Shown: in pieces, positions 4,572 through 54,608 of the stretch
How the letters are laid out: each line of letters begins with the position of its first letter
Position numbering within the stretch: position 1 is the first letter of the stretch
Sequence record: NC_135731.1
Source of the DNA: a phage
Reading direction: 5' to 3' (one strand)
Length of the DNA: 64,000 bases
Notes under the pieces: model-generated
What the model saw: the letters and a program-made list of their open reading frames with translations, nothing else
What the model was told of the DNA's origin: nothing
Databases searched by the model: none
Made by a program: the position numbers and the translations under genes

Positions 4572-5484
4572 CAGGTAGTCTATCTGCTCCCATTCGAATT
4601 GTGTCGTTTATGTTCAGGCAAGGTCGCTAGTCTTGCCCCGCCATTTTCAGGCAGCTGCATGTCTCCATGCAGACCAGACTATATCTTATGAATGTGTAAA
4701 TACTCTGCCGCTCTAAGAATAGTTTCCTCATCTTCTTGGAAGAAACCTAAAGCTCTGTTGCATTTATCACAAAGCAACCCTCTTACAGCACCAGTTTTAT
4801 GGTCATGATCAACACAAAAGAAATCTCTGTACCCTTGCGTCCTATACTCATCGAGAGATATTCTACAAATGGCACACTTATGATCTTGATCTGAGAGTAG
4901 ACGATAGTATTCATCTTTTGTTATGTGAAATTTCTTCTCAATCTGATAAAACTTTTCACACATCTTACACCTGTTCGTAACCAGATATACTTTACCATAG
5001 TCACGTTTTGTGTAAAAACTATCAGCGAGCATACTTTCATGACAAGATTTGCATTCAAAAAGTTCACCTTTCTTCAGCAAGTCTTGAATAAATAATGCTG
5101 CGTCATCTCTCTTAACCATATTTTTGTTTTTACGAGATCCACCCTTCCTGTAGTACATATAGCATTCCTTGCATGTACCTGAGTATCCATCCTTGCTCTT
5201 AGATGATAAAAAGAAATCATCAATAGGTAGAACTCTTTGGCAATCCATACATTTTTTAGTATTACACATTCATCCTCCCGTTTCGAATCGCTTGATTCTA
5301 CGTCTTTCGACTAGTCGTTGAACGTTCATCCTCTCGGATGCTTCGCTGCGGATTATCTAAATTAACACACTGTTACCATACCTTCGATCTCTCTTCGAAG
5401 CCTCTATTATGTTACCATAGCAGGTTGGTGGTGTCAATAATAAAGATTTCCCCGCAATTAGGGAGGTTTTACGAGAGCTACAAA
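4572..5484 (-). mobile_element. putative group I intron 1 in terL, carrying EndoVII-like homing endonuclease
   Basis: Non-coding flanks around nuclease ORF; shared motifs gatatagtctgg and agactag (minus sense) just downstream of the ORF stop; boundaries approximate. Confidence 0.5.
4679..5269 (-). CDS. endonuclease VII-like (zinc-binding) homing endonuclease, intron-encoded
   Basis: Signature CVDHDHKTGAVRGLLCDKCNRALG matches the DHDH-TG-RG-LC-CN core of T4 endonuclease VII family; additional CxxC pairs. Confidence 0.75.
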   Translation of the reverse strand: MCNTKKCMDCQRVLPIDDFFLSSKSKDGYSGTCKECYMYYRKGGSRKNKNMVKRDDAALFIQDLLKKGELFECKSCHESMLADSFYTKRDYGKVYLVTNRCKMCEKFYQIEKKFHITKDEYYRLLSDQDHKCAICRISLDEYRTQGYRDFFCVDHDHKTGAVRGLLCDKCNRALGFFQEDEETILRAAEYLHIHKI

Positions 5485-7016: not shown

Positions 7017-7093
7017 TGGTCTCCACGGAGTGATTCGAACACTCGACCTCCTGATCCCAAATCAGGCGCTCTACCAAGCTGAGCTACGCGGAG
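7017..7093 (-). tRNA. tRNA-Pro (anticodon UGG)
   Basis: Minus sense CTCCGCGTAGCTCAGCTTGGTAGAGCGCCTGATTTGGGATCAGG...GTTCGAATCACTCCGTGGAGACCA; cloverleaf hand-folded, anticodon loop TTTGGGA, encoded CCA. Confidence 0.7.
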
Positions 7094-7104
7094 TATTTAT
7101 AATT

Positions 7105-7179
7105 TGGTGGCCCTGGGTGGAATTGAACCACCGTCTGGCGATTATGAGTCGCTTGCTTGAACCTTCCAGCTACAGGGCC
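7105..7179 (-). tRNA. tRNA with CAU anticodon (Met, fMet or Ile-lysidine)
   Basis: Minus sense GGCCCTG...anticodon loop CTCATAA...GGTTCAATTCCACCCAGGGCCACCA; acceptor and T-arm pair well, D-stem weak. Confidence 0.6.
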
Positions 7180-7180
7180 A

Positions 7181-7256
7181 TGGTGCTGATGGCAGGACTT
7201 GAACCTGCAACCTATTGATTACAAATCAATTGCACTACCAATTGTGCTACATCAGC
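7181..7256 (-). tRNA. tRNA-Thr (anticodon UGU)
   Basis: Minus sense GCTGATGTAGCACAATTGGTAGTGCAATTGATTTGTAATCAAT...GGTTCAAGTCCTGCCATCAGCACCA; all four arms fold. Confidence 0.75.
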
Positions 7257-7262
7257 AAAAAG

Positions 7263-7360
7263 GTGCTAGGTGATGGAATCGAACCATCTATGTATTCAAC
7301 GACTACCTCGTCTATTTTCAGGATTAAAAATCCTCGCCCTTGCCAAAGGGCTTACCTAGC
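7263..7360 (-). tRNA. atypical tRNA-like element (about 98 nt; anticodon unresolved, possibly UUU)
   Basis: Perfect acceptor stem GCTAGGT/ACCTAGC, D-arm GCCC..GGGC and T-arm GATGGTTCGATTCCATC, but about 31 nt lie between anticodon stem and T-stem and CCA is not encoded. Confidence 0.35.
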
Positions 7361-7458
7361 TCAGTATGTTGACCATGTTGCTAGTCGGCGATGACGACTG
7401 TAACATTTGATAATCCGGTTCTGCTTCCGGCTTTCGCTTAATTACAAGGCCAACAATG

Positions 7459-7549
7459 TGGCGGAGAGTAATGGAATCGAACCATCATCGAGTCATCCTC
7501 AATGGGACGGTTTTCAAGACCGCTTGAGCACCATTGCTCCCTACCCTCC
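7459..7549 (-). tRNA. tRNA-Ser (anticodon UGA), type II
   Basis: Minus sense GGAGGGT...anticodon arm GCGGTCTTGAAAACCGT...long variable arm...GGTTCGATTCCATTACTCTCCGCCA; 91 nt; anticodon arm matches E. coli tRNA-Ser(UGA). Confidence 0.65.
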
Positions 7550-7663
7550 TTTATAAATTATACTGATAATGACACTGATTTTCGAGCAGTTAGTGACTAG
7601 TATAAACGACGATAAATATCAATGCCATTATCTGTATTATTTATGCATCTAAAAATATAAATT

Positions 7664-7750
7664 TGGTGGGGAGTGGTGGAGTCGAACCACCCGAGTCGCA
7701 ATGACAATAGATTTACAGTCTACACCGCTACCTCTACGGGATAACTCCCC
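7664..7750 (-). tRNA. tRNA-Tyr (anticodon GUA), type II
   Basis: Minus sense GGGGAGT...TAGACTGTAAATCTA...GGTTCGACTCCACCACTCCCCACCA; 87 nt; anticodon loop CTGTAAA. Confidence 0.65.
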
Positions 7751-7754
7751 AATT

Positions 7755-7829
7755 TGGCACCCCGTACTGGACTCGAACCAGTGTCAACGGCTTAGAAGGC
7801 CGCTGCTTTATCCACTAAGCTAACAGGGT
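7755..7829 (-). tRNA. tRNA-Arg (anticodon UCU)
   Basis: Minus sense ACCCTGTTAGCTTAGTGGATAAAGCAGCGGCCTTCTAAGCCGT...CTGGTTCGAGTCCAGTACGGGGTGCCA; A1:U72 acceptor pair. Confidence 0.6.
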
Positions 7830-7925
7830 ACTGGGTGGCTTTCTTTTACACCTTAGCCGCCAGAAAAGGTGGGAGACCATGTTTACAATATTACACTGTT
7901 AAGCAAAGTTTGTCAAGAAAATATT

Positions 7926-8264
7926 TTAGCTATTGCTAACAGGCTGTATTTCTGTAGTAAATGGCATAAAAGGTGCTGGTTTTTCAGCCTCTTCTACTAC
8001 CACCTCTTCCTCTTCACCAAACATCTCATCATATTCTTCCTGCATTCGGTCTGCCTTATCAAGAACATACTCTGCAATGCTTTGACGAATATTTTGTTTG
8101 GTTTTCGGGTCCAACATCAGCTCTCTTAAAACTTTGTGAGCTTCTGGAACCATCGCTATAAAAGATTCCTTCATATCAAGGATGTTCTTCTCTAGCTGAA
8201 TGGCGTTGGACTCCTCTTTCAGAGGTCTGCCTCTACGGCGACGCTTTTTAGTTGTATCCGCCAT
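7926..8264 (-). CDS. hypothetical protein (basic N-terminus, acidic C-terminus)
   Basis: Track ORF 7926..8384; start re-set to internal ATG (MADTTKKRRRRGRPLK...) after the GC-rich ORF-free segment. Confidence 0.4.
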   Translation of the reverse strand: MADTTKKRRRRGRPLKEESNAIQLEKNILDMKESFIAMVPEAHKVLRELMLDPKTKQNIRQSIAEYVLDKADRMQEEYDEMFGEEEEVVVEEAEKPAPFMPFTTEIQPVSNS

Positions 8265-8610
8265 GTTTCCTCCATTATCACGTGATAGGTGGATTTTATC
8301 ATAGCAAATACTGATTGTCAAGTTCGCCGCAGGGTGGTATTCCCTGCGACTTGTCCAGCGTCCTGGACCAGCAAGACCCAACAAGTGGGTTACCAGAGGC
8401 CTATTACCCGCGCTTCGGCTCGACCTTGTTACAGGTTGGCTGGGGTCACATCGTCATGTGCTGGCTGCCCCTACCATTTTAAGTGTGGTGCACTATCAAG
8501 CCCTCTAAGGGGAACTCAGTCTTCTCCGAACCCTGTTTCAAAGCATCCGGAGATAAAGCCATCAAATTCATCTTTAAATTGGATATTCATCATGATACAC
8601 GAAAACAACC

Positions 8611-8853
8611 TCATTGTAAAGCACAAATAAATAAAACATACTTAATTTGTTTGTTATCAGGCTCAGGGTAGAAGTAGAAGATCTTGCTATCACCGATCTG
8701 AACACCACCATCCCAACAACATAGCCCATAACCTGTATTCATACAAGCTAAGTCGTTGGCAAAATCTATTGCATCATCCAGTGCACGAAATTCACCTTCA
8801 TCTTCTAAATAATCCTCATTCATGGAACGAAAAACGAGCTTAACCTTAAACAT
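8611..8853 (-). CDS. hypothetical protein
   Basis: 80 aa minus-strand ORF. Confidence 0.3.
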   Translation of the reverse strand: MFKVKLVFRSMNEDYLEDEGEFRALDDAIDFANDLACMNTGYGLCCWDGGVQIGDSKIFYFYPEPDNKQIKYVLFICALQ

Positions 8854-8929
8854 AGCATTACCTGTAGACCTCGTAAGTTAAAATTGCATCACATCATATT
8901 GCAGATCTTATCAGGTAACACTATTTTTG

Positions 8930-9139
8930 TCAACAGATTCCGGCCTTATCCTTCCTGTCTGCGTATTCTTTAATCGCAACCTCATCTGCATTAGTGACCA
9001 GGTATTCAAAGTAACTCTCAAGCTCCTCGTCAATGTCAGGAGACCAGCTCTTTTTCCTGTCAGTGTGAATTGCAGACTTGTTGAACTTATTACAGTTCTT
9101 TGCTACCGGGTTGTTCATTAAGCGCTCCTCAGCGTTCAT
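8930..9139 (-). CDS. hypothetical protein
   Basis: 69 aa minus-strand ORF. Confidence 0.3.
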   Translation of the reverse strand: MNAEERLMNNPVAKNCNKFNKSAIHTDRKKSWSPDIDEELESYFEYLVTNADEVAIKEYADRKDKAGIC

Positions 9140-9707
9140 AGTAAATTTTATTTAACATTACCTCATCTTTTGCAGAAAGAATACCGAGATATGCATCACC
9201 GAATCTACCTGCAACAACCTCTGCATGATACATCACTTCGTTAATATCGTCAAGAGTGATAACTGGATGACCGTATCTCTCTGAGTATTGTCTCAGAGTG
9301 CGATGTAGAGAGTCATCATCATAGGCAGACTTTTTAATATCGCAAACACGACGAATAGCCTTGATGTCGAAAAACCCTGTACGATACCAACCAAGAAAAA
9401 GGTTTCGTGCAGTGTCAACATCTACATCAATACCATCAAGAACCTTATCTACAAGATAGCTGTCATCCTTTGGACCTGCTTCCTTAGTGCGAATGTAGTT
9501 GCCATCTTTTCCAGGTGACAGCTCCTTCTCATCACCAACCTGCATGCCATCATTTGGCGGTGTTAACCACTTATCCGGATGCTTACGATCACGAGCGTTA
9601 GAATGATTACGCTGGAAACCCGGCTTCCACTTGAAAGTTTTCTCCATCTGTTCTTCATTCTGATAACGTTTTGCAATCTTTTCACGGTCATCTTTGCGTG
9701 GACTCAT
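9129..9707 (-). CDS. hypothetical protein
   Basis: 192 aa minus-strand ORF, no recognised motif; AGGAGG-like RBS upstream. Confidence 0.45.
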   Translation of the reverse strand: MSPRKDDREKIAKRYQNEEQMEKTFKWKPGFQRNHSNARDRKHPDKWLTPPNDGMQVGDEKELSPGKDGNYIRTKEAGPKDDSYLVDKVLDGIDVDVDTARNLFLGWYRTGFFDIKAIRRVCDIKKSAYDDDSLHRTLRQYSERYGHPVITLDDINEVMYHAEVVAGRFGDAYLGILSAKDEVMLNKIYYER

Positions 9708-10209
9708 AGCTGCCTCCTCTTCAAGTTATAGAAAAACTCACTGTATCGCTTTGTAACGAGCTTTTCTATCAAACTGGTGCGATTGCCTTACTTGGTATAG
9801 TTTATATGGCTGTGGAGCGATTTAGGGGCCTCATTGTCCGTTTCCACACATAAACTTTATCCAAACTCGCTCGGGAGGCTCTCAACCGACTCCTTACGGC
9901 GCTGGCAAGCTTTCGTCGGTGGTCCACATTAGTGCTCGGCCTTTGGCCTGCGCTATCGCTTCGCTCCCACACATGTTAACAGACCTGCATGTATGCACTT
10001 CTGTTATTGTGTGCACTATGGAGGCCAGGCATCTCGCCCCTCGTAGGCGAGTGCCAATGAAGGGCCGACACTACCTATAGAATGTAATAAATTTAAAACA
10101 TGGTACTTAGGATCTAGTATATTCTACATAAGTTAAGTATATGTACTTAGTACCATAAGTACTAGATCTTTTATTTTTTATTATTTAGTTATTTTAGTTA
10201 TATTCTTTA

Positions 10210-10295
10210 TGTGTCCGTATCACGGACAGTTAGTGTCCGTATTACGGACAGATGTGTCCGCGTGACGGGCAGTAGTGTCCGTATCACGGACAGTT
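10210..10295. repeat. four tandem palindromic iterons TGTCCGTATCACGGACAG
   Basis: Copies at about 10212, 10234, 10255, 10276 (two identical, two with 1-4 substitutions); each has inverted half-sites TGTCCG/CGGACA; AT-rich palindromic tract 10085-10200 adjacent. Confidence 0.8.
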
Positions 10296-10367
10296 AATAG
10301 TTTCTGTTCCATGGTGAACATAAAACATACAAATCCTTATAGTACAGATATTTAAGTTTTTACTGGT

Positions 10368-10718
10368 CTAACCAGTTGTTGACATTCGAATAACTTCTTC
10401 TGGTGGCAAAACTTTGGAAAATGTGCATCTTTTACCTCTCCCTTGTGTGGATGTTTCAACAACTCCTGCACATTCTAAAGTTTTAACGCACGCTGCTGCT
10501 TTTGTTTTCTTTATCCCAACATCTGCTGCAATTTTCCTTGTGCTTGGTGTGAAGTGTGAATTTCCTCCAAGCTTATACCAGTTGTGCAGGTAGCAGTATA
10601 CAATCTTGTCATACAAGTCAAGAACAACAACCTCCCCAGTTGTGTCATTCAAAACTTTTGACATAGATAGTATTTCAAGGGGGACTTTAAGATATAGCAG
10701 CTTATCCCCATCTTTCAT
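10368..10718 (-). CDS. hypothetical protein, possible DNA-binding protein
   Basis: 116 aa ORF immediately upstream (minus sense) of the iteron array; HTH-like segment TRKIAADVGIKKTKAAACVKTL. Confidence 0.35.
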   Translation of the reverse strand: MKDGDKLLYLKVPLEILSMSKVLNDTTGEVVVLDLYDKIVYCYLHNWYKLGGNSHFTPSTRKIAADVGIKKTKAAACVKTLECAGVVETSTQGRGKRCTFSKVLPPEEVIRMSTTG

Positions 10719-10765
10719 ATCTCCTGATTCTCCTTGTGTGGCAATTTTCTTTAAAATAGCAGGGA

Positions 10766-11320
10766 TTACTCCCTGCTGTCAATATCAAAACTCATTGCAA
10801 TACGGTATGCCTCTTCTAATGGTAAGAGTCTCCCCCACACATCCCAACCGACATCAAGCTGCCTGCCAAACAACTGTTGTGTGGTTCCGTGAGCATGACC
10901 GAACAGTTGGACTGATCCGTGAGGCTTTCTGTTCCACTTTGCAAACTGGTAATGGCTCATACAGATCAAATTCTTGTTGTGGCGAAGCTCGTAATAATCT
11001 ACAACCTCATGACCGAACTCTTTCATAATTCTGACAGTCGTTCTTGTGTCATGGTTGCCACGAACAAGAATAATATGTCCGTTCAACATATTTAGAATAT
11101 CTGGAAGTAAGTTGTTGATATTCTTATCATTAGTGCACGCAATATCTCCCAGGTGGAACACAGTGTCTGCAGGTGACACAACAGAGTTCCACTCGGCGAT
11201 GATTCCAGCATTCATACTATCAAGATTGTGATCATACTGAGATCTGTGTTTTTGACATGACTCAAACTCCATGACCCGCTGGTGGAGAAAGTGTGTGTCG
11301 CTTGTTACAAAGTATTTCAT
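10766..11320 (-). CDS. calcineurin-like metallophosphoesterase (putative polynucleotide 3'-phosphatase)
   Basis: Track ORF 10766..11422; start re-set to MKYFVTSDTHF; motifs DxH (SDTHF), GDIACTND, GNHD. Confidence 0.6.
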   Translation of the reverse strand: MKYFVTSDTHFLHQRVMEFESCQKHRSQYDHNLDSMNAGIIAEWNSVVSPADTVFHLGDIACTNDKNINNLLPDILNMLNGHIILVRGNHDTRTTVRIMKEFGHEVVDYYELRHNKNLICMSHYQFAKWNRKPHGSVQLFGHAHGTTQQLFGRQLDVGWDVWGRLLPLEEAYRIAMSFDIDSRE

Positions 11321-11327
11321 ACATTCC

Positions 11328-11745
11328 TCATTTAAGTTTAATGCAGTTTTTAAGTTGGCGTTCCATACGATCCACAACCTCGTCTGAAGCATGAATGCTT
11401 TTATTACCGTGGCGGTTTTCAACCACGATCACGGTATAACTATACCCATAACTGATTGCCATGTCAACATATTCCTGCACATGTTTTTCTTTTGTAAAAG
11501 TATTACTTACCACGATACGGTCGTATCCCATACGCATCATATCTTCTACGTTATCTTTGCACCATTTTGCTGCGAGTGTTAATTTACTTGCATCCCAGTT
11601 GTAATTGCCGTCATCGTCATACCAGAACATGTCGTTCTCAAAATGTGGATACAGGCCTTCTAAAGATAGCGCATTTGCCAGTGTTGATTTGCCAGACCCC
11701 GGCAGACCACGCACGATATATAGCATTTTAGACATAGCAATCCTC
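11328..11745 (-). CDS. P-loop kinase (putative polynucleotide 5'-kinase)
   Basis: Track ORF 11328..11792; start re-set to MSKMLYIVRGLPGSGKST with RBS; Walker A GLPGSGKST; about 139 aa; adjacent to phosphoesterase and RNA ligase. Confidence 0.5.
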
Positions 11746-11835
11746 CGTTTTAATTTTAATGATAGTATACCTAACTGTTTTGTTAATTTCAAGTGTTGAC
11801 ACTAGGTTATTTGTGTGGCAGGATAGACTGACAAA

Positions 11836-12771
11836 ATGACAAATGAGGAACGTATGATGAAGTATTTTAATGCAGATGACCTAGTAGACAAAGGTCTTGT
11901 AACCAGTCGGTATTATCCAGATCTTGGATTAAAGATCTATAAATATGCCAGAAAAGTATTCTACAACAATCTGTGGCATTTGTCTCCGCGTTTACTGGAG
12001 TGCCGAGGTATTGTTGTTGGCAATGAGGGGAATGTTGTGGCATGGCCTTTCACAAAAGTATTCAACTTAGGAGAAAACTCCACCAACCTACCGGACAGTA
12101 AACTTGTTACTGCGGTAGAGAAAAAGAACGGATTCCTCGGTGTGGTATCATCTCATAAAGGTGAACTGTTGTTCTCAACAACCGGGTCTCTTGATTCCCC
12201 ATATTGTAACCTCGCAAAAGAAACCATCATGGAGCAATGTGGTAATTTAGATCTTATCAAGAAGGTTATGGGCAATGAAAACATGACATTCATGTTTGAA
12301 ATTTGCCACCCTTCAGATCCGCATATTGTTCAGGAAGATCATGGCGCATATTTGATAGGTTGCAGATATAATGATTCTGGAATAATGCTACCAGAAGCAG
12401 CTTTAGACGGGATTGCCAAATACCTTGGTGCAAAACGTCCTCACACTGTGCGTGAAATTCCGTTCAGCTATGCAAAAGAATTAGCTGCAGAAACAAGAGG
12501 TGAAGGGTATATGATTCGTAAGCCTTACTACCCTTATGATCTGCAGCTGAAGATCAAGTCTCCATACTATCTGGCACGGAAGGCTGTAATGAGGGGTAAA
12601 GCTTGGAAGATTTGGGATGATGATATCTTTAAACGTGTTGACGAAGAGTTTTACGGTATGGTAAAATTTATTCGTAGCAACTATACAGAAGATGTGTGGA
12701 ATTGCTTATTAGAGCAGGAGCGTCGTGAGATACTGGACTACTATTTCCACAACGAGGACTATATGCAATGA
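11836..12771 (+). CDS. RNA ligase (Rnl-type nucleotidyltransferase)
   Basis: Nucleotidyltransferase motif I KKNGFLG, motif IV EGYMIRK, motif V LKIKS; divergent from kinase/phosphatase pair. Confidence 0.55.
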   Translation: MTNEERMMKYFNADDLVDKGLVTSRYYPDLGLKIYKYARKVFYNNLWHLSPRLLECRGIVVGNEGNVVAWPFTKVFNLGENSTNLPDSKLVTAVEKKNGFLGVVSSHKGELLFSTTGSLDSPYCNLAKETIMEQCGNLDLIKKVMGNENMTFMFEICHPSDPHIVQEDHGAYLIGCRYNDSGIMLPEAALDGIAKYLGAKRPHTVREIPFSYAKELAAETRGEGYMIRKPYYPYDLQLKIKSPYYLARKAVMRGKAWKIWDDDIFKRVDEEFYGMVKFIRSNYTEDVWNCLLEQERREILDYYFHNEDYMQ

Positions 12772-13118
12772 AGAAGTGGATTGTGTGGCTTGATGATTTT
12801 AGAGATCCGTCAGATTATGGACTCCCAGACGCTCTGTGGCTAAAGAATTCTTCTGAGTTTATGGATTTTCTTAATGATAAGAGAAAGCTCTACAGACGCG
12901 TATCTGAGTGGTATTTTGACAATGATCTAGGTGAAGTTCTTGAAGGGTACGACTGCTTCTCTGCGCTAGAGGAGAAACTTGTATTCGGAAAGCCACCACT
13001 TATTGACAACGTGATTATTTTCGTGCATACTTCTAATCCATCGGCAGCTCGTAAATTTATGCTTGCTGCTGACTCATTCAAGAAGTTTGGAATAGAGATT
13101 AAACAAAACATCTACTGA
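12768..13118 (+). CDS. hypothetical protein
   Basis: 116 aa, ATGA overlap with RNA ligase stop; immediately precedes Sir2-like gene. Confidence 0.4.
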   Translation: MKKWIVWLDDFRDPSDYGLPDALWLKNSSEFMDFLNDKRKLYRRVSEWYFDNDLGEVLEGYDCFSALEEKLVFGKPPLIDNVIIFVHTSNPSAARKFMLAADSFKKFGIEIKQNIY

Positions 13119-38987: not shown

Positions 38988-39268
38988 AAATGAGTGCTAA
39001 GGACAAATTACACCAGCTAGCGCTAAAACGCCCTGTAACGCTCCCTGACGAGCTTAACTCCATTTATGATGCGATTGTAGGGGAGATACAAAATAAAGCG
39101 TTAGCAGGCTTTCTGGGGTGCGGATTTTCGATAAATCTACCCTCGCATCTCTCAGATTACTTCCCGCACATTGTTGGAGATTTAAGGGCAGGAGGTCTGC
39201 AGGTAGATGTTGTTGGCATCTCCCCAGAGAAAAATAATACGGTTGCCTACTTGACAGTAACCTGGTAG
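38984..39268 (+). CDS. hypothetical protein
   Basis: Track ORF 38954..39268; start re-set to ATGA-overlap ATG (MKMSAKDK...). Confidence 0.35.
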   Translation: MKMSAKDKLHQLALKRPVTLPDELNSIYDAIVGEIQNKALAGFLGCGFSINLPSHLSDYFPHIVGDLRAGGLQVDVVGISPEKNNTVAYLTVTW

Positions 39269-39306
39269 TTGTGTATTGTTGTTTTCAACAAGAGGGGGGG
39301 TCATTT

Positions 39307-42966: not shown

Positions 42967-43061
42967 CTATGATTGCATCAATATTAACGTTTATGGGCGG
43001 CGTGGCATTCGGATTCATTGTTTGCCTGTTTATAGTGATTATGTCTATGCGAGGCTGAATT

Positions 43062-43358
43062 ATGAAACTTTTTGAGTGGTTTAAAAAGTTTAAATATAAA
43101 GCTGTAGCCATCGTGCCATGGTCCATTCAATGGGTGGACGATGAGGGATTACCAATTCCAGGTGATAAAGACACGGGATACTGGATCATGCTTGAAAACG
43201 GGTTTGGAAAGCGAAAATATACGTGCACAAACTCTACTCGATCTGCACTTAATAGAGTGCCTGGTTACAAACTTATGGTTGTGTGGAAAATGTCAGGCGT
43301 GCCTCCAGCTAACGCTCAATTTCTTACTGACAATCCAACCACGGTGGAGGGAGATTGA
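43062..43358 (+). CDS. hypothetical protein
   Basis: 98 aa. Confidence 0.35.
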   Translation: MKLFEWFKKFKYKAVAIVPWSIQWVDDEGLPIPGDKDTGYWIMLENGFGKRKYTCTNSTRSALNRVPGYKLMVVWKMSGVPPANAQFLTDNPTTVEGD

Positions 43359-43642
43359 CAATGAAAAAGATTAACAGTGGTGAAGTTGAGTTTAAACTTG
43401 TCGGGAAAGGCACTTACTGGGAAGTTCGTCAAAAGGTATATTTGTTCGGTCTTATTCCCTATTGGTCTAAATTCTACTGGGGAGCTAACGAGTGGGGAAG
43501 ATACGCCACCAAATCAATGGCACTTATTGGTATAGCAGAGTACATTGCAGCCAGAGATAGGGTTGGAGACACTTATTACTATACTGCGGACGATATTCGT
43601 AACAGTGTTTACGTCCCACAACCACCTGATGGAGACCGTTGA
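43355..43642 (+). CDS. hypothetical protein
   Basis: 95 aa, overlapping stop/start. Confidence 0.35.
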   Translation: MTMKKINSGEVEFKLVGKGTYWEVRQKVYLFGLIPYWSKFYWGANEWGRYATKSMALIGIAEYIAARDRVGDTYYYTADDIRNSVYVPQPPDGDR

Positions 43643-49510: not shown

Positions 49511-49810
49511 ATGTCTACAAAGGCGGCTAAATACTCATATATGCCATCAACCTCTGCAGAGGTAGACTTTAGTTTCGATGTATTTCCACTGTTTGAGGTG
49601 GTTCTGGCATACCCTGCAATACTATCTACTCCTGAATCACTTGTGCCTGTTAAGTTGCAGAACGCTATGCATTCCATGCACTACAACAATAAATGTAGGC
49701 ACAGATGGTGTCAGGACGAGGGAAAAGATTTGGATAGTTTGAGGGATTTTGACAGTCACCTTTTGACACCTTTCAGCTACTCCAACCTTGATAAGCCCTC
49801 ATGGGTATAG
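49511..49810 (+). CDS. hypothetical protein
   Basis: Track ORF 49499..49810; start re-set to MSTKAAKY. Confidence 0.35.
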   Translation: MSTKAAKYSYMPSTSAEVDFSFDVFPLFEVVLAYPAILSTPESLVPVKLQNAMHSMHYNNKCRHRWCQDEGKDLDSLRDFDSHLLTPFSYSNLDKPSWV

Positions 49811-50032
49811 AAAATATCAAATTTAAGACACCTAGGACGCTCTGTGGCGTCCTTTTCTTTATCTGGTGCACGATTGCATACCTTGGACAGATAATCTCAT
49901 TACAGAGCGTTTAAGAGCTTCCTACAAACAACTCCATATTTCGAGCGTAGCGAGAACGCACGTCCGTTTTGACCCAAATCACCATACGCTCGGATTTTAA
50001 CCAAACCCTCGCGGCGTTTCTGTTGACACATT

Positions 50033-50061
50033 GCCACTCTCGTGATAGTATCCACACATAG
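50033..50061 (+). promoter_or_regulatory. sigma70-like promoter
   Basis: TTGACA - 17 nt - TAGTAT, upstream of a 29-aa hydrophobic ORF (about 50085-50174) and 50170..50382. Confidence 0.45.
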
Positions 50062-50169
50062 TTTGGAGAATATGAGGTACACAATGAGAACATTGTCCGA
50101 AGTTTTGGTGGTGATCCTGATGATCATTATGTCCATAGCGGCTGTTGCCGGAATACTCACGGGTGGAAC

Positions 50170-50382
50170 ATGATAAACACACATGCATCTGAAGATACAT
50201 CCAAAGGAGTGACTATATGTCCCTTGGCTGAGCCAGTGAAAGAGGAAAACTTCGATTCTGAAGATTCTCCATCTTCGCTCCAGGTAGATCCTGAGGCTGA
50301 CGACCTAACGTGGGAAGACATCGTAGATATCTGGTTCTCTATTATGCCTGAGCACGAAGAGTTCAGGGGTGGTAGACTATGA
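50170..50382 (+). CDS. hypothetical acidic protein
   Basis: 70 aa. Confidence 0.3.
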   Translation: MINTHASEDTSKGVTICPLAEPVKEENFDSEDSPSSLQVDPEADDLTWEDIVDIWFSIMPEHEEFRGGRL

Positions 50383-50503
50383 AGCACCGAGCCCACACAG
50401 GTTCCTCATGCTAAAGCATGGCCTGAAGAGGCAAACGTGTATAATTCTAGCGTATTGGAACGTATAAAACCCTGTTCACACTCTCATTCCCAGAGGAGAT
50501 TTC

Positions 50504-50719
50504 ATGAAGATAGAAATATTTGGTGGAGCTGACAACACTCGTGGCCTGATTTACCTTGAATTCGATGAATCATACCTGCCAGAGGTGTTAAATATAGACT
50601 CTGTTGCTGAGGCTTTGGGAGTAAACCCTAAAGAACTTCACTCTTGTGCTGAGATTGATGGTTGGGAGGAGACCATGAACATCGATTTTAGTGAAGTAGG
50701 GGATGAACCACTGGACTGA
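50504..50719 (+). CDS. small acidic protein, MKIEI-start family
   Basis: MKIEIFGGADN..., 71 aa, last plus-strand gene before the non-coding region. Confidence 0.4.
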   Translation: MKIEIFGGADNTRGLIYLEFDESYLPEVLNIDSVAEALGVNPKELHSCAEIDGWEETMNIDFSEVGDEPLD

Positions 50720-51480
50720 CACACAATTAGCTGCCTGGCTAAAGTGCTGGAGCACCTATAGCACATCTTTCAACTAAATTTCCTACCACCACAATCACTT
50801 ACCTCCCACACATGACTGTTTGCTTGTTTAGTGAGCAGTCATGCCTTGACATTCTTGTCTATCCTGATAAAATTAAGTTCTTCTCTTTTCTTTTACCGAG
50901 TAATTCGGGTTTTCTGTTCTCTTCGGTTTGAAGGGGTATGGAGATACACCTGAGTGAACAGGGTGAACAACCGAACCATTGGCTATGGCATTAGCATGGC
51001 GAAGCGGACGGGTGACGAAAGAGGGGCCGGAGGACACTAGTCACTGCCATATGATATATGGGTGATAACCTGAAGAGTCTGAATAAGTGTTTAAGTACCA
51101 GTCAGAGGAAAAGGTGAATGGTAGCCGAAGGGGGAGGGGGGTTTCTTGTATCTTTAATTTGTATATTATGCATACACTTGTAAACCAATCTCATCTGAAT
51201 CTGTTTACCACACAAAGTGGATTGAGACAAATATTACCTATTAAACCTGAATTATTTATAGAAAATACCACAACACCACTTAAGTCTTTGATTTTACACA
51301 TAAATCCTACAGATATTCACCCTCCATATTTAACATACTTGTAACATATCCCATACTCTACCTGTCTGATCAATTTCCCCAACCACATCCCCATATTTTC
51401 CCTTCCTGTACTACCCCTGCCCCGCCGGGAGTCCCGTCATATCTGGCTTTCCAGCAAATATCACACCCACAAATATCATT

Positions 51481-51631
51481 GCCTGAAGAGGGTTTCATCC
51501 CATAATACATGCCTTACCTGAAGAGCGCTTCATATACCCCGTAAATTTTTTAATTGACCCCCCTCCCCGCCGCCGGAGAGGTTGGCTTTTCCCACACAGA
51601 CCTGAAGAGTCAGCCAGAAATATCTGAAGAG
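51481..51631. repeat. cluster of CCTGAAGAG direct repeats
   Basis: Four copies ((C/T)CTGAAGAG) at about 51481, 51517, 51601, 51623; two more at about 50422 and 51069. Confidence 0.6.
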
Positions 51632-52189
51632 GGTCCAGTTCTACCCTGTCAGGAGCCGGTAGCGACTGGAGTGCTGCCAGGCGGACGAAATGGGAATACT
51701 TCTCATTCTTATAACAATTCTCAAATATCGAGGCAGTGAGGCAAATTAATAGGTTAGGCCGTTCACACAGTGGCACAACATTTGCAACCTATCTTGTGGG
51801 AGTGAATGAGAATACCTATCATTGTGAGAATAGTTATCATTACGGGCAATTTAACATAATACCCATTATGCGCACCACTGGCGATACATACAGGGATTGA
51901 TAACATGAGTTACTGTTTACACACATAACAATTATATTTCTTACTATTTGTGTGGGATATAGTTAGCAGCCGATAGATTAGATATTGACCTGCGGACTTC
52001 TGACCATCTAGACGTCTAAACGCCCACACAACAAGGCTTATACATACATCGCTGAATGTAAACAGGGCCGCAAAAATGCTACCATACAAGCTTGTAAATT
52101 TTTCATGCAGCACTTGACAAAGAGGAGAAAAACTTGTCTGACACAATATGACTTAATTGCCACAACATGACACTTTTGCACACCTGATT

Positions 52190-52575
52190 GTTTGCATATC
52201 TAATAGTTTACATGGATAACTGTTCACATACTTATCATTTACATGATTGACTGTTTACACAGAGATGATAAGCCATGCCATTCGTTTGCATGATAACAAT
52301 TAACCAGTTTACAATTAACAAGTTAATAATCTTTCGCTGGCTATGCCAGGTGACTAGGTCACCCCTTCAGGTGTTTCTATGACATAATATAAAAGCAGGG
52401 CAACTATTAGCAGATCTATAGTTGCCTTGCTTGTCATGTCATGATTAACTAAATACAAGGCAACTATGATCTGATTAATAGTTTGCAGACAAACTATCAC
52501 GGGGGTGATGGTTACTGCTTTTATATTATGTCGCGACTCCGTCGCGCCATGCCATTCGTTTGCATAGTTGCCTTA
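52190..52575. repeat. complex repeat region (GTTTACA-like iterons, 19-bp inverted repeat, GCAACTAT palindromes)
   Basis: Repeated (A/T)GTTTACA(T/C) and CGTTTGCAT units 52205-52315; CCATGCCATTCGTTTGCAT at about 52273 and 52548; inverted repeat TGACATAATATAAAAGCAG (about 52379) / CTGCTTTTATATTATGTCG (about 52515); GGCAACTAT...ATAGTTGCC palindrome. Confidence 0.65.
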
Positions 52576-53179
52576 TTGTTACGAATAAAACAATTGCATT
52601 GTTAATGATTTCTTATCTTTCTCTTAGTCATCTAATGATTCCAGTCAGTATAGTAATGTACAGTAAACATTAGACGACTAAAGATTTCTCTGTTTATTAT
52701 AACTTACCGTTACAATTTCGGACTGTTTACCAAGAATGTTGACACATAAGCTGATTTATGTTATGCAGTTTACACGAATAATTATTTTATGCAGGTATTG
52801 ACTATTCCGTTATTCCATGGTTGGAATAAATACTTAGCAGACTATAGAATGGTGAGCGTACGTAAATTCTGAGATCTGGCGGCTATAGTTATACTCGATT
52901 TTTCACGTAGAACACGCTTTTGTGAGTGTGTAAGTGTATGACTTATAAAGATTTTTAGTTGTTGACAAGATATTGAAGATGTGCATCAGGTTAAATTTTG
53001 TGCAATAGCGGCATTACGTGCAATCTTGAGAGAGAAAACGGGTAAAAATGGCCCTGCTACCACACAATGAAAAATTATGCAATAGTTATTTTACATGTAT
53101 GTTTGTACAGTGTGTGGGATTGATGGCTAGTCAATTATTCCACTTGCCAGGCTGGGCCGTTTGTGGTAGGAGAAATACA

Positions 53180-53215
53180 GACAAAAAGAAAGGGGCCTTT
53201 TAAAGCCCCTGATAG
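53180..53215 (-). terminator. rho-independent terminator (minus strand)
   Basis: Minus-sense hairpin GGGGCTTTAAAAGGCCCC followed by TTTCTTTTT, immediately downstream of 53229..53648. Confidence 0.55.
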
Positions 53216-53228
53216 TTTAGTTAAGAAA

Positions 53229-53648
53229 TTATAATGATTCGTATATTTCATAGATTCGATTTGCCAGGTCGTTACGGTAGCGGAATTTTTCCTCACGTTT
53301 GATCATCAGATCTTTAAAGCCATATTCTTTAAGCACTTCATTAACTTTATGGCGGCATACCTTCATATTATCCTGTGCGTCACCAATAAACCTGTTGCTA
53401 TGGTGCATGGCTTTAATTTCTTCTTCCAGGACCAGGGCAACTATGCGGACCGGATCAAGCTGATAGGCGGTAACATCAATGCGGCATTGTAAACGGCTTT
53501 TTACGTCTGCCACCGGATATACTGCAACCTCTTCCCCGTCAACATTGACAATAATTAGTTTACCATCGATTTCGAATCCTTTCGCCGCCGGACCGTGACA
53601 AAAAGCGTTATCAAAGCTATATGCCGGATTATTAGATTTAATGTTCAT
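53229..53648 (-). CDS. hypothetical protein
   Basis: 139 aa; AGAGG-type RBS. Confidence 0.45.
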   Translation of the reverse strand: MNIKSNNPAYSFDNAFCHGPAAKGFEIDGKLIIVNVDGEEVAVYPVADVKSRLQCRIDVTAYQLDPVRIVALVLEEEIKAMHHSNRFIGDAQDNMKVCRHKVNEVLKEYGFKDLMIKREEKFRYRNDLANRIYEIYESL

Positions 53649-53793
53649 GGTGTTTTTACCTCTTAGTTAATTTTCTTACAACTTCCCTTCAAAAAAGAAT
53701 ATAGCAAAACTGCCGATCCTTGTCAACCAAGGATAGCATAATTTTTATGTGATCAAGGGGCTTTATTGCCCCCTGATCGTGCAACTTGTTGTA

Positions 53794-54057
53794 TTATTTG
53801 TTGCTCATCCAGTTTTCCCAGGCTGCCTGATAATCTGCCTCACTGCGGCGGATCTCTTCTTGCTCTTCAAGTCGGATCTCTTCTTCCAGGTACCCCAAGA
53901 TATCGGCTTTTTTGGTCTGGCGTAACATCCAATCATCTTTTTTACGGGTAAAGATCTTGTACGCTTTCTCGCAAACCTCTTTTTTGCTACCTTTTTGGAC
54001 TTCAAGAACTTTGTAGGCCATGTACTGAACTAGTTTAAGCTGATCAAGACGTTTCAT
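53794..54057 (-). CDS. hypothetical protein
   Basis: 87 aa, charged; RBS and GC hairpin in leader. Confidence 0.4.
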   Translation of the reverse strand: MKRLDQLKLVQYMAYKVLEVQKGSKKEVCEKAYKIFTRKKDDWMLRQTKKADILGYLEEEIRLEEQEEIRRSEADYQAAWENWMSNK

Positions 54058-54117
54058 GATGTTTACCTCTTTGTGTGGTTCTGATTAGTGGGCCTCCCGG
54101 CCCGTGTCATTATCTTA

Positions 54118-54390
54118 TTACTTACGGCGGCAGAATTCAAGCGTTTTTAATTGATAATCTTCCTCAGCCTGGAGTACAACCGCCTCGATCATTTCGTTGG
54201 CATTGTTGAAGCCATACCCTTTAGCGAACTCGTCCGCACCACCTTCGTGATCATGTTCTGCGTTCATCGCTTCCACAAAATGGAATTCCAAATTGTTGAG
54301 GTAGGGGCTTGATGTGCCGTCTTCTTTTTCGATGAGATCCCAAATAGCATTAAAACGTGATTCGACTTCTTGATTAATCCAGCTTGACAT
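54118..54390 (-). CDS. hypothetical acidic protein
   Basis: 90 aa; RBS and GC hairpin (GGGCACCTTTGCCC) in leader. Confidence 0.4.
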   Translation of the reverse strand: MSSWINQEVESRFNAIWDLIEKEDGTSSPYLNNLEFHFVEAMNAEHDHEGGADEFAKGYGFNNANEMIEAVVLQAEEDYQLKTLEFCRRK

Positions 54391-54608
54391 AGTGTTTTCC
54401 TCTCTTCTGGTTGTTGTGTGGGCACCTTTGCCCCTTCAAGATAAATGTTACCCCACCCCCCTGGCAGATGTCAACGGTTTTTATAGTTCTTATATGACAG
54501 GCAGGCCCGGTGATTGTCTCCCCCTGTTCCCAAGTGCCGCCCGTTTAATAAGAATAGCAAAAGGGGCCGAACAAGTCAACCCCAAAATCAGTACCAAAAC
54601 ACTTTTAT

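Follow-up and report, generated by a model that had tools for sequence, protein, structure and literature searches.

A conserved, folded non-coding element beside iteron arrays in rV5-like phages and small Escherichia coli plasmids

The origin oriV of the IncQ plasmids RSF1010 and R1162 comprises iterons, an A+T-rich region and the hairpin priming sites ssiA and ssiB. Initiation signals of the G4 and phiX174 type and single-strand origins (sso) are strand-specific, and GCGAAGC, a very stable DNA mini-hairpin, is reported at such sites. With ColE1 RNA II and the R-loops of T4 oriF and oriG, a folded or origin-crossing transcript becomes the leading-strand primer; ColE1-type replicons have no iterons. 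The PLE satellites of vibriophage ICP1 carry a RepA_N initiator and iterons in a long non-coding region and are replicated by the helper's replisome; we know of no structured element shared by the PLE and ICP1 origins, and of very few satellites of virulent myoviruses. Here we describe a folded non-coding block of ~350 nucleotides (nt), referred to as the element, at positions 9722–10072 of a 64,000-nt stretch of phage DNA (the window; record NC_135731.1). The element lies beside an iteron array, recurs in small plasmids of Escherichia coli and probably acts in cis in replication (or in recognition by a helper), a type of element not yet catalogued.

Typing and therapy of E. coli O157 make wide use of rV5-type phages, whose replication origin, to our knowledge, has never been located. 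Together with the iterons and a small helix-turn-helix (HTH) gene, the element constitutes a concrete, testable origin candidate, and we tentatively read it as one of the two halves of a replication-origin region, the half that is structured and conserved and that would act single-stranded, as RNA or unwound DNA, in priming or helicase loading. It represents a structured non-coding family absent from Rfam, with relatives outside the phage genus only in satellite-like small plasmids.

Conservation and folding of the element

The window belongs, by its sequence, to an rV5-like Vequintavirus: a query of 2.2 kb surrounding the segment is 100% identical to Escherichia phage phiWec196 and 97–99% identical to more than 100 other Vequintavirus genomes. 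The segment is present in 118 of the 118 Vequintavirus records that carry the locus, at 90–100% identity, and is somewhat more variable than the flanking coding DNA (for JohannBauhin, 95.6% identity here versus 98.5% over the surrounding 2.2 kb). Its bounds follow from a 137-kb phage contig of IMG/VR (L005), in which the element is 84% identical: similarity extends from about window position 10072 to the start codon of the downstream gene, and everything upstream is unrelated.

An earlier note on this DNA had marked positions 9720–10080 as GC-rich, free of open reading frames (ORFs), rich in hairpins and adjacent to an iteron array. Segment, structure and position are all upheld, and the coordinates proved near exact, as the 350-nt conserved block runs from 10072 down to the Shine–Dalgarno (SD) sequence of gene 9129–9707. 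Its G+C content is 0.504, compared with 0.424 for the window and 0.206 for the neighbouring spacer (10080–10205), and the strings quoted in the note lie within it (CTCGGGAGGCTCTCAACCGACTCC at 9870–9893 and GGCCTTTGGCC at 9938–9948). The only ORFs that overlap it are three mechanical ones of 40–56 codons with GTG starts, and its open frames differ between near-identical relatives. A small-protein reading was rejected on that ground, and because the insertions and deletions between phage and plasmid copies are of 1 and 4 nt.

Folded in isolation, the minus strand of 9708–10100 reaches −128 kcal/mol (z = −3.8; 0 of 100 shuffles as stable) and the plus strand has a z-score of −2.05. An RNAalifold consensus of 15 phage and plasmid sequences has standard pairs in 96.7% of its 553 pair cells, versus 29–48% with the partners slid. 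Double changes affect 7 of its 37 pairs, a count matched by 20 of 500 shuffles, whereas neither the 27 doubly changed cells nor the covariation score of 0.176 (shuffled mean, 0.099) is attained in any of the 500, all scored on the alignment from which the structure was derived. The segment is real, conserved and structured well above chance.

No RNA family of Rfam was matched in the segment by the Infernal scan that the note had proposed: with cmscan and Rfam 15 at gathering thresholds, only tRNAs pass in the 64-kb window. At E ≤ 5 over 7800–10500 the best match was rli43, with 23 bits of the 100 needed and mostly over the A+T-rich spacer; a scan of one of the plasmids described below (L007) gave nothing relevant.

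Searches for further relatives led to the same few lineages. No relatives beyond Vequintavirus were found among phages with blastn in its 'distant' mode, and a protein-anchored search for the locus in IMG/VR yielded one contig only. Scanning GTDB genomes and JGI metagenomes for an invariant exact 19-mer returned 51 stretches, six of them real (three rV5-like, one that duplicates L005, and two contigs of the plasmid type, 13.9 and 15.5 kb long), and the remainder chance matches in G+C-rich genomes; a degenerate core pattern gave only chance matches in IMG/VR, inside a coding ORF. A covariance model of the core (R1) finds one copy in the window, at 9864–9973 (131.7 bits), and one per genome in L005 and six plasmid-type loci; no additional copies were found with R1 in the window, the T4 loci or the plasmids.

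Eighteen MG0656xx records labelled 'Campylobacter phage' (host C. jejuni) are 97–98% identical to the coliphage locus, and mis-assignment of the host or contamination is likely. PLSDB entry CP057073.1 (137,565 bp), deposited as an E. coli plasmid from cattle faeces, matches a 301-nt query (9780–10080) at 95.7%, and its size is compatible with an rV5-like phage genome carried in culture.

Architecture of the element

The element is divided into the following parts, read in the sense of the flanking genes.

9722–10072, minus strand (gene-sense by convention; either strand may be the folded one): whole element, a conserved block of ~350 nt
10027–10071, minus strand: 5′ domain, GUGUCGGCC followed by a 12-bp hairpin UGGCACUCGCCU...GGGGCGAGAUGCC(U/G) and then GGCC
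9976–10019, minus strand: variable peripheral hairpin, AACAG...CUGUU around UGCA-UACA-UGCA
9864–9973, minus strand: core domain, closed by UGUGUGGGAG (9973–9964) pairing with CUCCCGA (9876–9870)
9885–9920, minus strand: helix ACCGAC/GUCGGU, enclosing GAAAGCUUGCCAGCGCCG(U/G)AAGGA, which is invariant save one U/G site; inside are a predicted GCU-UGCC-AGC hairpin and a CC-G(U/G)AA-GG GNRA-type loop
9790–9863, minus strand: 3′ domain, a conserved GCCCCUAAAU(C/G)GC and two small covarying hairpins, GCU-CCAC-AGC and UAUA-AAC-UAUA (AAC loop)
9728–9769, minus strand: terminal hairpin AUAGAAAAGCUC-N18-GAGUUUUUCUAU, an inverted repeat, invariant in the phages including L005

At the centre is the 110-nt core, for which 24 pairs are 97.7% paired across the alignment, a value reached by 0 of 500 shuffles. 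Three of the six pairs of the 9885–9920 helix are doubly changed between phages (CCGAC/GUCGG) and plasmids (CUGCC/GGCAG) with all cells paired, and the 24 nt enclosed are identical in 15 of 15 aligned sequences except at the U/G site. Unpaired stretches are thus invariant while stems compensate, which points to selection on both the fold and the loop sequence.

The 5′ domain is invariant among the phages and, of the plasmids, was aligned in L007 only, where two double changes read from the alignment preserve the pairing of its hairpin (GGCAC/GUGCC-type to GUCAC/GAUGAC, and CUCGCC/GGCGAG to CUCUCC/GGAGAG). The peripheral hairpin is variable: its stem AACAG/CUGUU has doubly changed to ACAGC/GCUGU in L005, 18 nt of the hairpin are missing from phage Murica, and other hairpin modules occupy its place in the plasmids. 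The first hairpin of the 3′ domain reads GCU/AGC in rV5-like phages, GUC/GAC in L005 and GGCC/GGCU in plasmids, with two pairs doubly changed. In plasmids the position of the terminal hairpin is taken by a hairpin of another sequence, although its loop opens alike, with CGCGUUA or GCUCGUUA; bases of this loop may pair with GCGAG at 9866–9870 (helix 7 of the model, with one doubly changed pair). Other pairings are possible; a fold of the phage sequences alone, for instance, has a long-range helix GUGUCGGCC/GGCCGAGCAC.

The terminal hairpin stops 7 nt before the SD sequence of gene 9129–9707 (GAGGAGG, 9713–9719), and this 3′ end is invariant among phages, as might be expected of a cis-regulatory 5′ leader (riboswitch-like or protein-binding) of that gene, the first of three functions suggested earlier. 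The comparison weakly refutes a leader, which we regard as very improbable. The region holds neither an intrinsic terminator nor a pairing that would hide the SD sequence (GAGGAGG is free), and Rfam gives no riboswitch match. Moreover, element and gene occur apart: the plasmids have the element without the gene, their operon starting from a promoter downstream of the element, and a contig of another phage (L077) has a 50%-identical homolog of the gene with an upstream gap of ~60 nt and no element.

Diverged copies in E. coli plasmids

A blastn search of complete E. coli genomes and PLSDB returned two short pieces of the element, at 82–83% identity, in circular plasmids of 13.2–13.7 kb. These belong to an E. 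coli plasmid family of ~13.5 kb (~13.3–13.9 kb), of which CP020521 (L007), CP178698 (L059), CP035869 (L060) and CP148565 (L061) are complete, and L033, L038 and L073–L075 are other members; L007, L033, L038 and L059–L061 carry the element with rearranged modules. Phage and plasmid copies are mosaic yet collinear over ~350 nt, with at least six conserved blocks in order. These are UGUGUGGG; AAUGUGGACC; the six-pair helix around GAAAGCUUGCCAGCGCCG(U/G)AAGGAG, invariant save one U/G site; (U/C)CUCCCGCGCG; and GCCCCUAAAU(C/G)GC, followed by two small hairpins, GCAAUYGCA and the terminal hairpin, whose loop starts with (G)CUCGUUA or CGCGUUA.

Plasmid genes specify a major capsid protein (PHROG 29), a Dit-like baseplate protein (54% identity to phiWec196 gene 49806–50690), a neck/tail-completion protein (48% identity to phiWec196 gene 43031–43489) and a tape-measure protein that finds its best phage matches among those of Vequintavirus (25%), as well as a Rep-like HTH_36 protein of 288–306 residues, a small HTH protein and a few proteins of no recognised kind. 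Terminase, portal and replisome genes could not be recognised in the plasmids from annotations and PHROG matches. The content fits a satellite, some morphogenesis genes related to those of a helper in an incomplete set; the plasmids seem to derive by reduction from rV5-like phages, most plausibly as their satellites, and judged by their genes the ~13.5-kb family probably consists of undescribed satellites with putative helper dependence. Among the papers searched we found none describing the plasmids, or linking them or rV5 to satellites, and nothing relevant to the element in the literature on rV5 or Vequintavirus non-coding RNA or origins. The capsid family of the plasmids comprises 18 clusters at an identity of at least 82%, one of them with 441 members; every named member carries an Escherichia coli annotation, and most lie on contigs between 13.4 and 14.3 kb.

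The plasmids also have a non-coding region of 2.2–2.9 kb. When they are compared with the complete phage genome (138.7 kb), no other non-coding match is as strong as that of the element. As the plasmid proteins are only 25–54% identical to their phiWec196 counterparts, the element must have been either constrained or exchanged.

A match of this kind would also suit a helper-recognition packaging site (pac- or cos-like) for the rV5-type terminase, which would serve the phage in like manner. The satellite P4, for one, has the cos site of its helper, and the plasmids lack annotated terminase and portal genes yet have rV5-like capsid, tail and neck genes; in the phage, the gene for the terminase large subunit is 4–5 kb from the element. 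Such a site seems quite improbable to us. The compensatory stems indicate folding of a single strand, whereas a terminase site would be double-stranded, and the tight link of the element is with iterons rather than terminase genes. Deposited rV5-like genomes start elsewhere, though record starts are arbitrary, and the most conserved block is missing from one plasmid.

That plasmid, L073 (WTMG01000048, 2380–2590; two samples), retains iterons, UGUGUGGG, AAUGUGGA, CCGCGCG and the 3′ domain, but an unrelated hairpin replaces the helix that holds the invariant GAAAGCUUGCCAGCGCCGGAAGGAG, and R1 has no match. This replacement adds to the signs of a mosaic (modules inserted in L062, deleted in Murica (18 nt) and multiplied in the 5′ parts of plasmids) that could be explained by a pile-up of mobile or recombining palindromic modules, similar to repetitive extragenic palindromes, miniature inverted-repeat transposable elements or terminators, in the rV5 and plasmid pool, the similarity then reflecting recent exchange and not selection for a single function. 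A separate ~50-nt triple hairpin at non-syntenic phage and plasmid sites and the genome-wide over-representation of TGTGTGG fit the same picture. Such a pile-up is nevertheless unlikely, given the collinearity of at least six blocks over ~350 nt, the single-copy core found at one locus in 118 of 118 Vequintavirus records, and the invariance of unpaired stretches whose stems compensate.

The triple hairpin, CUUUCRCUGGCUnnGCCAGGUGACnnnnnGUCACCCCUUCRGGUGU, is shared at 80–85% between phage and plasmids. It is located in the window at 50189–50245 (minus strand) and 52330–52378 (plus strand), and in the plasmids at L007 10882–10938, L059 8549–8599 and L060 10646–10697; it lies under annotated genes in some plasmids, and its first stem in L059 is a compensatory CUGCC/GGCAG. 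TGTGTGG occurs 26 times in the window versus 8.1 expected, a count not attained in any of 100 shuffles; L007 has 17 versus 1.3 expected. The window sites cluster at 9844–12788 and 50052–54421. It has at least two contexts: in the element, UGUGUGG is a helix strand, and upstream of several genes CCACACA stands on the mRNA strand after a G+C-rich hairpin, a few bases before the SD sequence.

Two other plasmid records are unusual in structure. L062 (CP043822, 39.6 kb) is a head-to-tail plasmid trimer with small differences between the units, and L075 (30-kb contig NTNY01000053) has aph(3″)/aph(6)-type and tet-regulator genes and a DDE transposase beside the plasmid backbone.

Iterons, spacer and candidate initiators

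Upstream of the element in the window are three features that together resemble an iteron-type origin.

10080–10205, no strand: A+T-rich spacer (G+C 0.206) with palindromes, a candidate DNA-unwinding region
10211–10296, no strand: iteron array, four copies of GTGTCCGTATCACGGACAG(TTA) spaced by 22, 21 and 21 bp
10368–10718, minus strand: candidate initiator, a 116-residue winged-helix protein, upstream of the iterons

The segment is thus ~140 nt from the four 21–22-bp direct repeats, beside the array as the earlier note had placed it. The 116-residue protein matches Pfam DUF6945 with 29.2 bits (cut-off 28), HTH_36 with 24.9 bits (cut-off 25) and PHROG 12838, 'replication initiation protein', at 3e-79; family names given for initiator candidates are annotations and not tests of function.

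In L005 the element is preceded by a different A-rich spacer in the same position, three iterons GATACATATTTGCATCAGAT that are unlike the rV5 set, and a different upstream ORF of 143 residues without a Pfam match. Each plasmid type has its own 5–6 repeats, unrelated to the phage iterons and mostly in a 23-bp phase (spacings of ~23, 43 and 86 bp). They abut the element in three of the four complete plasmids, L059, L060 and L061, where the iterons themselves are A+T-rich. The plasmid HTH proteins match HTH_36 with 26.2 bits in L059 (cut-off 25) and 22.4 bits, below it, in L060; L007 has a weak MarR match, also below cut-off. Weak matches to PHROG 428 and 391 were obtained for the plasmid Rep-like proteins.

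The element therefore stands beside three unrelated iteron sets, those of the rV5-like phages, L005 and the plasmids, with a spacer between in both phage lineages. At least three direct repeats of ~17–23 bp in helical phase, the mark of iteron origins, are found in the window, the plasmids and L005, and an adjacent A+T-rich region is provided by the spacer in the phages and by the A+T-rich iterons in L059–L061.

Strand and transcription

As to RNA or DNA, the loop motifs of the fold point both ways. Cells with G·U outnumber those with A·C on the gene-sense strand (47 versus 9, and 117 versus 15), a comparison biased by the prediction of the structure on that strand; counted by columns, pairs with a G·U cell and with an A·C cell number 9 versus 8, and 23 versus 12. 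On the gene-sense strand are GNRA-type loops (GUAA/GGAA, with only the N position varying) and, in plasmid modules, C(UUCG)G. The phage copy also contains GCGAAGC, at 9958–9964 on the minus strand. Loops of the GNRA and C(UUCG)G types suit RNA; GCGAAGC and its complement C-GAA-G suit stable DNA mini-hairpins.

No terminator-like site was found on the minus strand over 7700–10800, so that transcription of the upstream genes would read through both iterons and element. Nor does the phage (10080–10200) or L059 show a sigma70-like site immediately before the element, although consensus scans can miss phage-specific promoters. The one strong sigma70-like promoter of L059 lies downstream of the element (5278–5306), at the head of the operon with the HTH_36 protein gene. 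A small RNA, the second of the suggested functions, is neither favoured nor disfavoured: consensus scans yielded no promoter and no terminator that would bound the element.

A structured RNA with no part in replication could nonetheless be made by read-through or from a phage-specific promoter, and serve as a regulator, a decoy, an anti-defence factor or a platform for a phage RNA-binding protein, the plasmids copying it for co-regulation with the phage or titration of a helper factor. The conserved fold, long invariant unpaired stretches, RNA-typical loops and the excess of G·U over A·C cells (with the bias noted) are in keeping with it, as are joint transcription with the upstream genes, no terminator intervening, and an RNA-centred neighbourhood of seven tRNA genes, a polynucleotide kinase (PNK)-like ATPase, a phosphoesterase and RNA ligase 1. 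We consider such an RNA a serious rival, if a somewhat doubtful one. Its ends cannot be placed, with no promoter-like site directly upstream and no terminator downstream; it has no Rfam match at any threshold tried; the consensus folding energies of the two strands are close; and it would not on its own account for the repeated adjacency to unrelated iteron arrays.

A tentative model of the origin region

A part in an origin, the third of the functions suggested earlier, is the best supported by context, with three unrelated iteron sets alongside and a gene of HTH_36 or 'replication initiation' type nearby in rV5-like phages and plasmids. Exchange of initiator and iterons with retention of the neighbouring folded module is what favours an origin-accessory role. 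The element is also present in a single copy per genome, in 118 of 118 records, and is not tied to the downstream gene.

On this tentative reading, a lineage-specific initiator (the 116-residue HTH protein in rV5-like phages, the 288–306-residue HTH_36 protein in plasmids) would bind its own iterons, and the neighbouring A+T-rich stretch would open. The ~350-nt hairpin module would then work single-stranded, as an unwound DNA strand or an origin-crossing transcript, and priming or helicase loading would start there. The sequences show the conservation, the base pairing and the recurrence of iterons beside the element, with an A+T-rich spacer between them in the phages; an origin at the iterons, a replication role for the module and its action in single-stranded form are inferred from context. 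The module may contact conserved downstream machinery, the host or phage replisome, which would explain why it is constant while initiator and iterons are swapped, and why small plasmids keep a copy.

Several points weigh against this reading. RNAalifold energies in sense and antisense are close in the three data sets (−26.1/−27.0, −89.0/−86.3 and −19.4/−21.8, with gaps below 3 kcal/mol), and z-scores of a trimmed 368-nt version are alike on the two strands (−2.7 and −2.6). The fold was derived from the alignment on which it was scored, and most of the double changes come from the single split between phages and plasmids. An RNA primer would lack a start site upstream of the element, 350 nt is long relative to known priming signals, and the iterons could instead be operator sites; in L007 they are ~540 nt from the element. 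The GAAAGCUUGCCAGCGCCGGAAGGAG helix is dispensable for plasmid maintenance, as L073 is without it, and could still matter in phage infection. Lastly, the paper describing the rV5 genome tried skew analysis and did not place an origin (PMC3606486).

Going beyond an origin role, the element might be the shared cis-acting 'handle' of an undescribed helper–satellite pair formed by the lytic rV5-like phages and the free ~13.5-kb E. coli plasmids, an idea we hold to be possible but rather doubtful. The same folded RNA or single-stranded DNA module would then sit beside otherwise unrelated origins, and through it the plasmid would plug into the replication (or packaging) machinery of the phage. Were the link functional, it would define the sequence through which the helper is exploited, allow other satellites of this kind to be detected, and possibly help to determine phage–plasmid interference in E. 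coli populations, including plasmid copies with acquired resistance genes.

Gene neighbourhood and other features of the window

All genes flanking the segment are on the minus strand.

11328–11792, minus strand: PNK-like ATPase, first in transcription order
10766–11422, minus strand: phosphoesterase (metallophosphoesterase), second in transcription order
9129–9707, minus strand: 192-residue protein, function not assigned, directly downstream of the segment
Beyond gene 9129–9707: small genes, a second ORF-free segment (~8290–8610) and seven tRNA genes

Adjoining the origin-like region is thus an RNA-repair-like set (PNK-like ATPase, metallophosphoesterase and RNA ligase 1; 10766–12771), near which are the seven tRNA genes (7017–7829), one being a 99-nt tRNA-like gene with a four-base anticodon call (7262–7360). 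A PDB sequence search with the 192-residue protein gave no match. Its homolog on L077 (6001–6564; 50% identical, in a cluster of 215 members) is in a gene-dense setting by DNA ligase-like and Phage_pRha genes, with no structured region in the ~60 nt upstream.

The earlier note had also linked the segment to 8289–8610 through shared motifs. The letters are present (GTGCACTAT and GCGAAGCG-like) at a level no higher than chance: the best local alignment scores 10, against a shuffle mean of 10.0, with 172 of 300 shuffles reaching that score or more, and R1 matches nothing there at E ≤ 10. A paralogous relationship between the two segments was rejected on these grounds.

The 8290–8610 segment has features of its own. 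It is bracketed by minus-strand sigma70-like sites (8620–8592 and 8321–8293), and a 40–48-nt stretch at 8400–8447 (minus strand, GCCAACCUGUAAYAAGGUCGAGCCSAAGCGCGG.UAAU) matches 466 records of T-even-type phages at 85–90%; the T4 copy is in an unannotated gap between denV and vs.8, in gene orientation.

Further along the window, ~50000–53200 is an ORF-poor stretch of ~3 kb, with all ORFs below 100 codons, that is kept among rV5-like phages; it contains many TGTGTGG sites together with the two window copies of the triple hairpin, and is probably the box labelled 'non-coding' in the rV5 genome paper. The window also spans the ends of the phiWec196 record LC739542 (window ~39153–39300), whose first and last 148 bp are identical, owing either to a collapsed terminal repeat or to an assembly overlap.

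Comparison with known systems

The closest parallel by layout is the IncQ oriV, with direct repeats for a replicon-specific initiator, an A+T-rich stretch and a G+C-rich hairpin region active once unwound; the modular split into initiator-specific and priming-specific parts would be the same here. ssiA and ssiB are two hairpins of ~40 nt on opposite strands, read by a plasmid primase, whereas the element is a multi-hairpin block of ~350 nt without sequence similarity to them, the plasmids have no dedicated primase, and a role in priming is putative.

With the initiation signals of the G4 and phiX174 type, primosome assembly sites and sso, the element shares its non-coding nature, its wealth of hairpins, its place near origins and the conservation of fold above sequence; conserved intrastrand secondary structure is found here as it is there. 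Those signals are 55–300 nt long and are defined by function with DnaG, PriA or RNA polymerase; for the element such a function is putative.

Similar to the ColE1 and T4 primers, phage transcription from the side of the initiator-like gene would cross iterons and element with no terminator between. Unlike ColE1 RNA II, however, no promoter-like site at the expected distance, antisense regulator or RNase H-type site was identified, so that the arrangement of a promoter a few hundred nt upstream with an antisense regulator was not seen. Likewise, the neighbouring proteins have no reverse transcriptase domain, as a retron msr-msd region would require.

Among structured RNAs of phages and satellites that act with phage machinery, the phi29 pRNA (RF00044) and the P4 CI and C4 antisense RNAs (Rfam C4) offer a general likeness; the element has no Rfam match and differs from them in size, position and architecture. 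The plasmids for their part resemble the PLEs in having their own initiator and iterons in a non-coding region of 2–3 kb, in lacking replisome genes and in being related to a myovirus that is strictly lytic. In contrast to the PLEs, which are integrated islands, the plasmids are free, circular and ~13.5 kb long with capsid and tail genes of their own, and their dependence on a helper is putative. By sequence the element is a member of none of the systems compared, and we class it tentatively as an origin-associated structured non-coding element.

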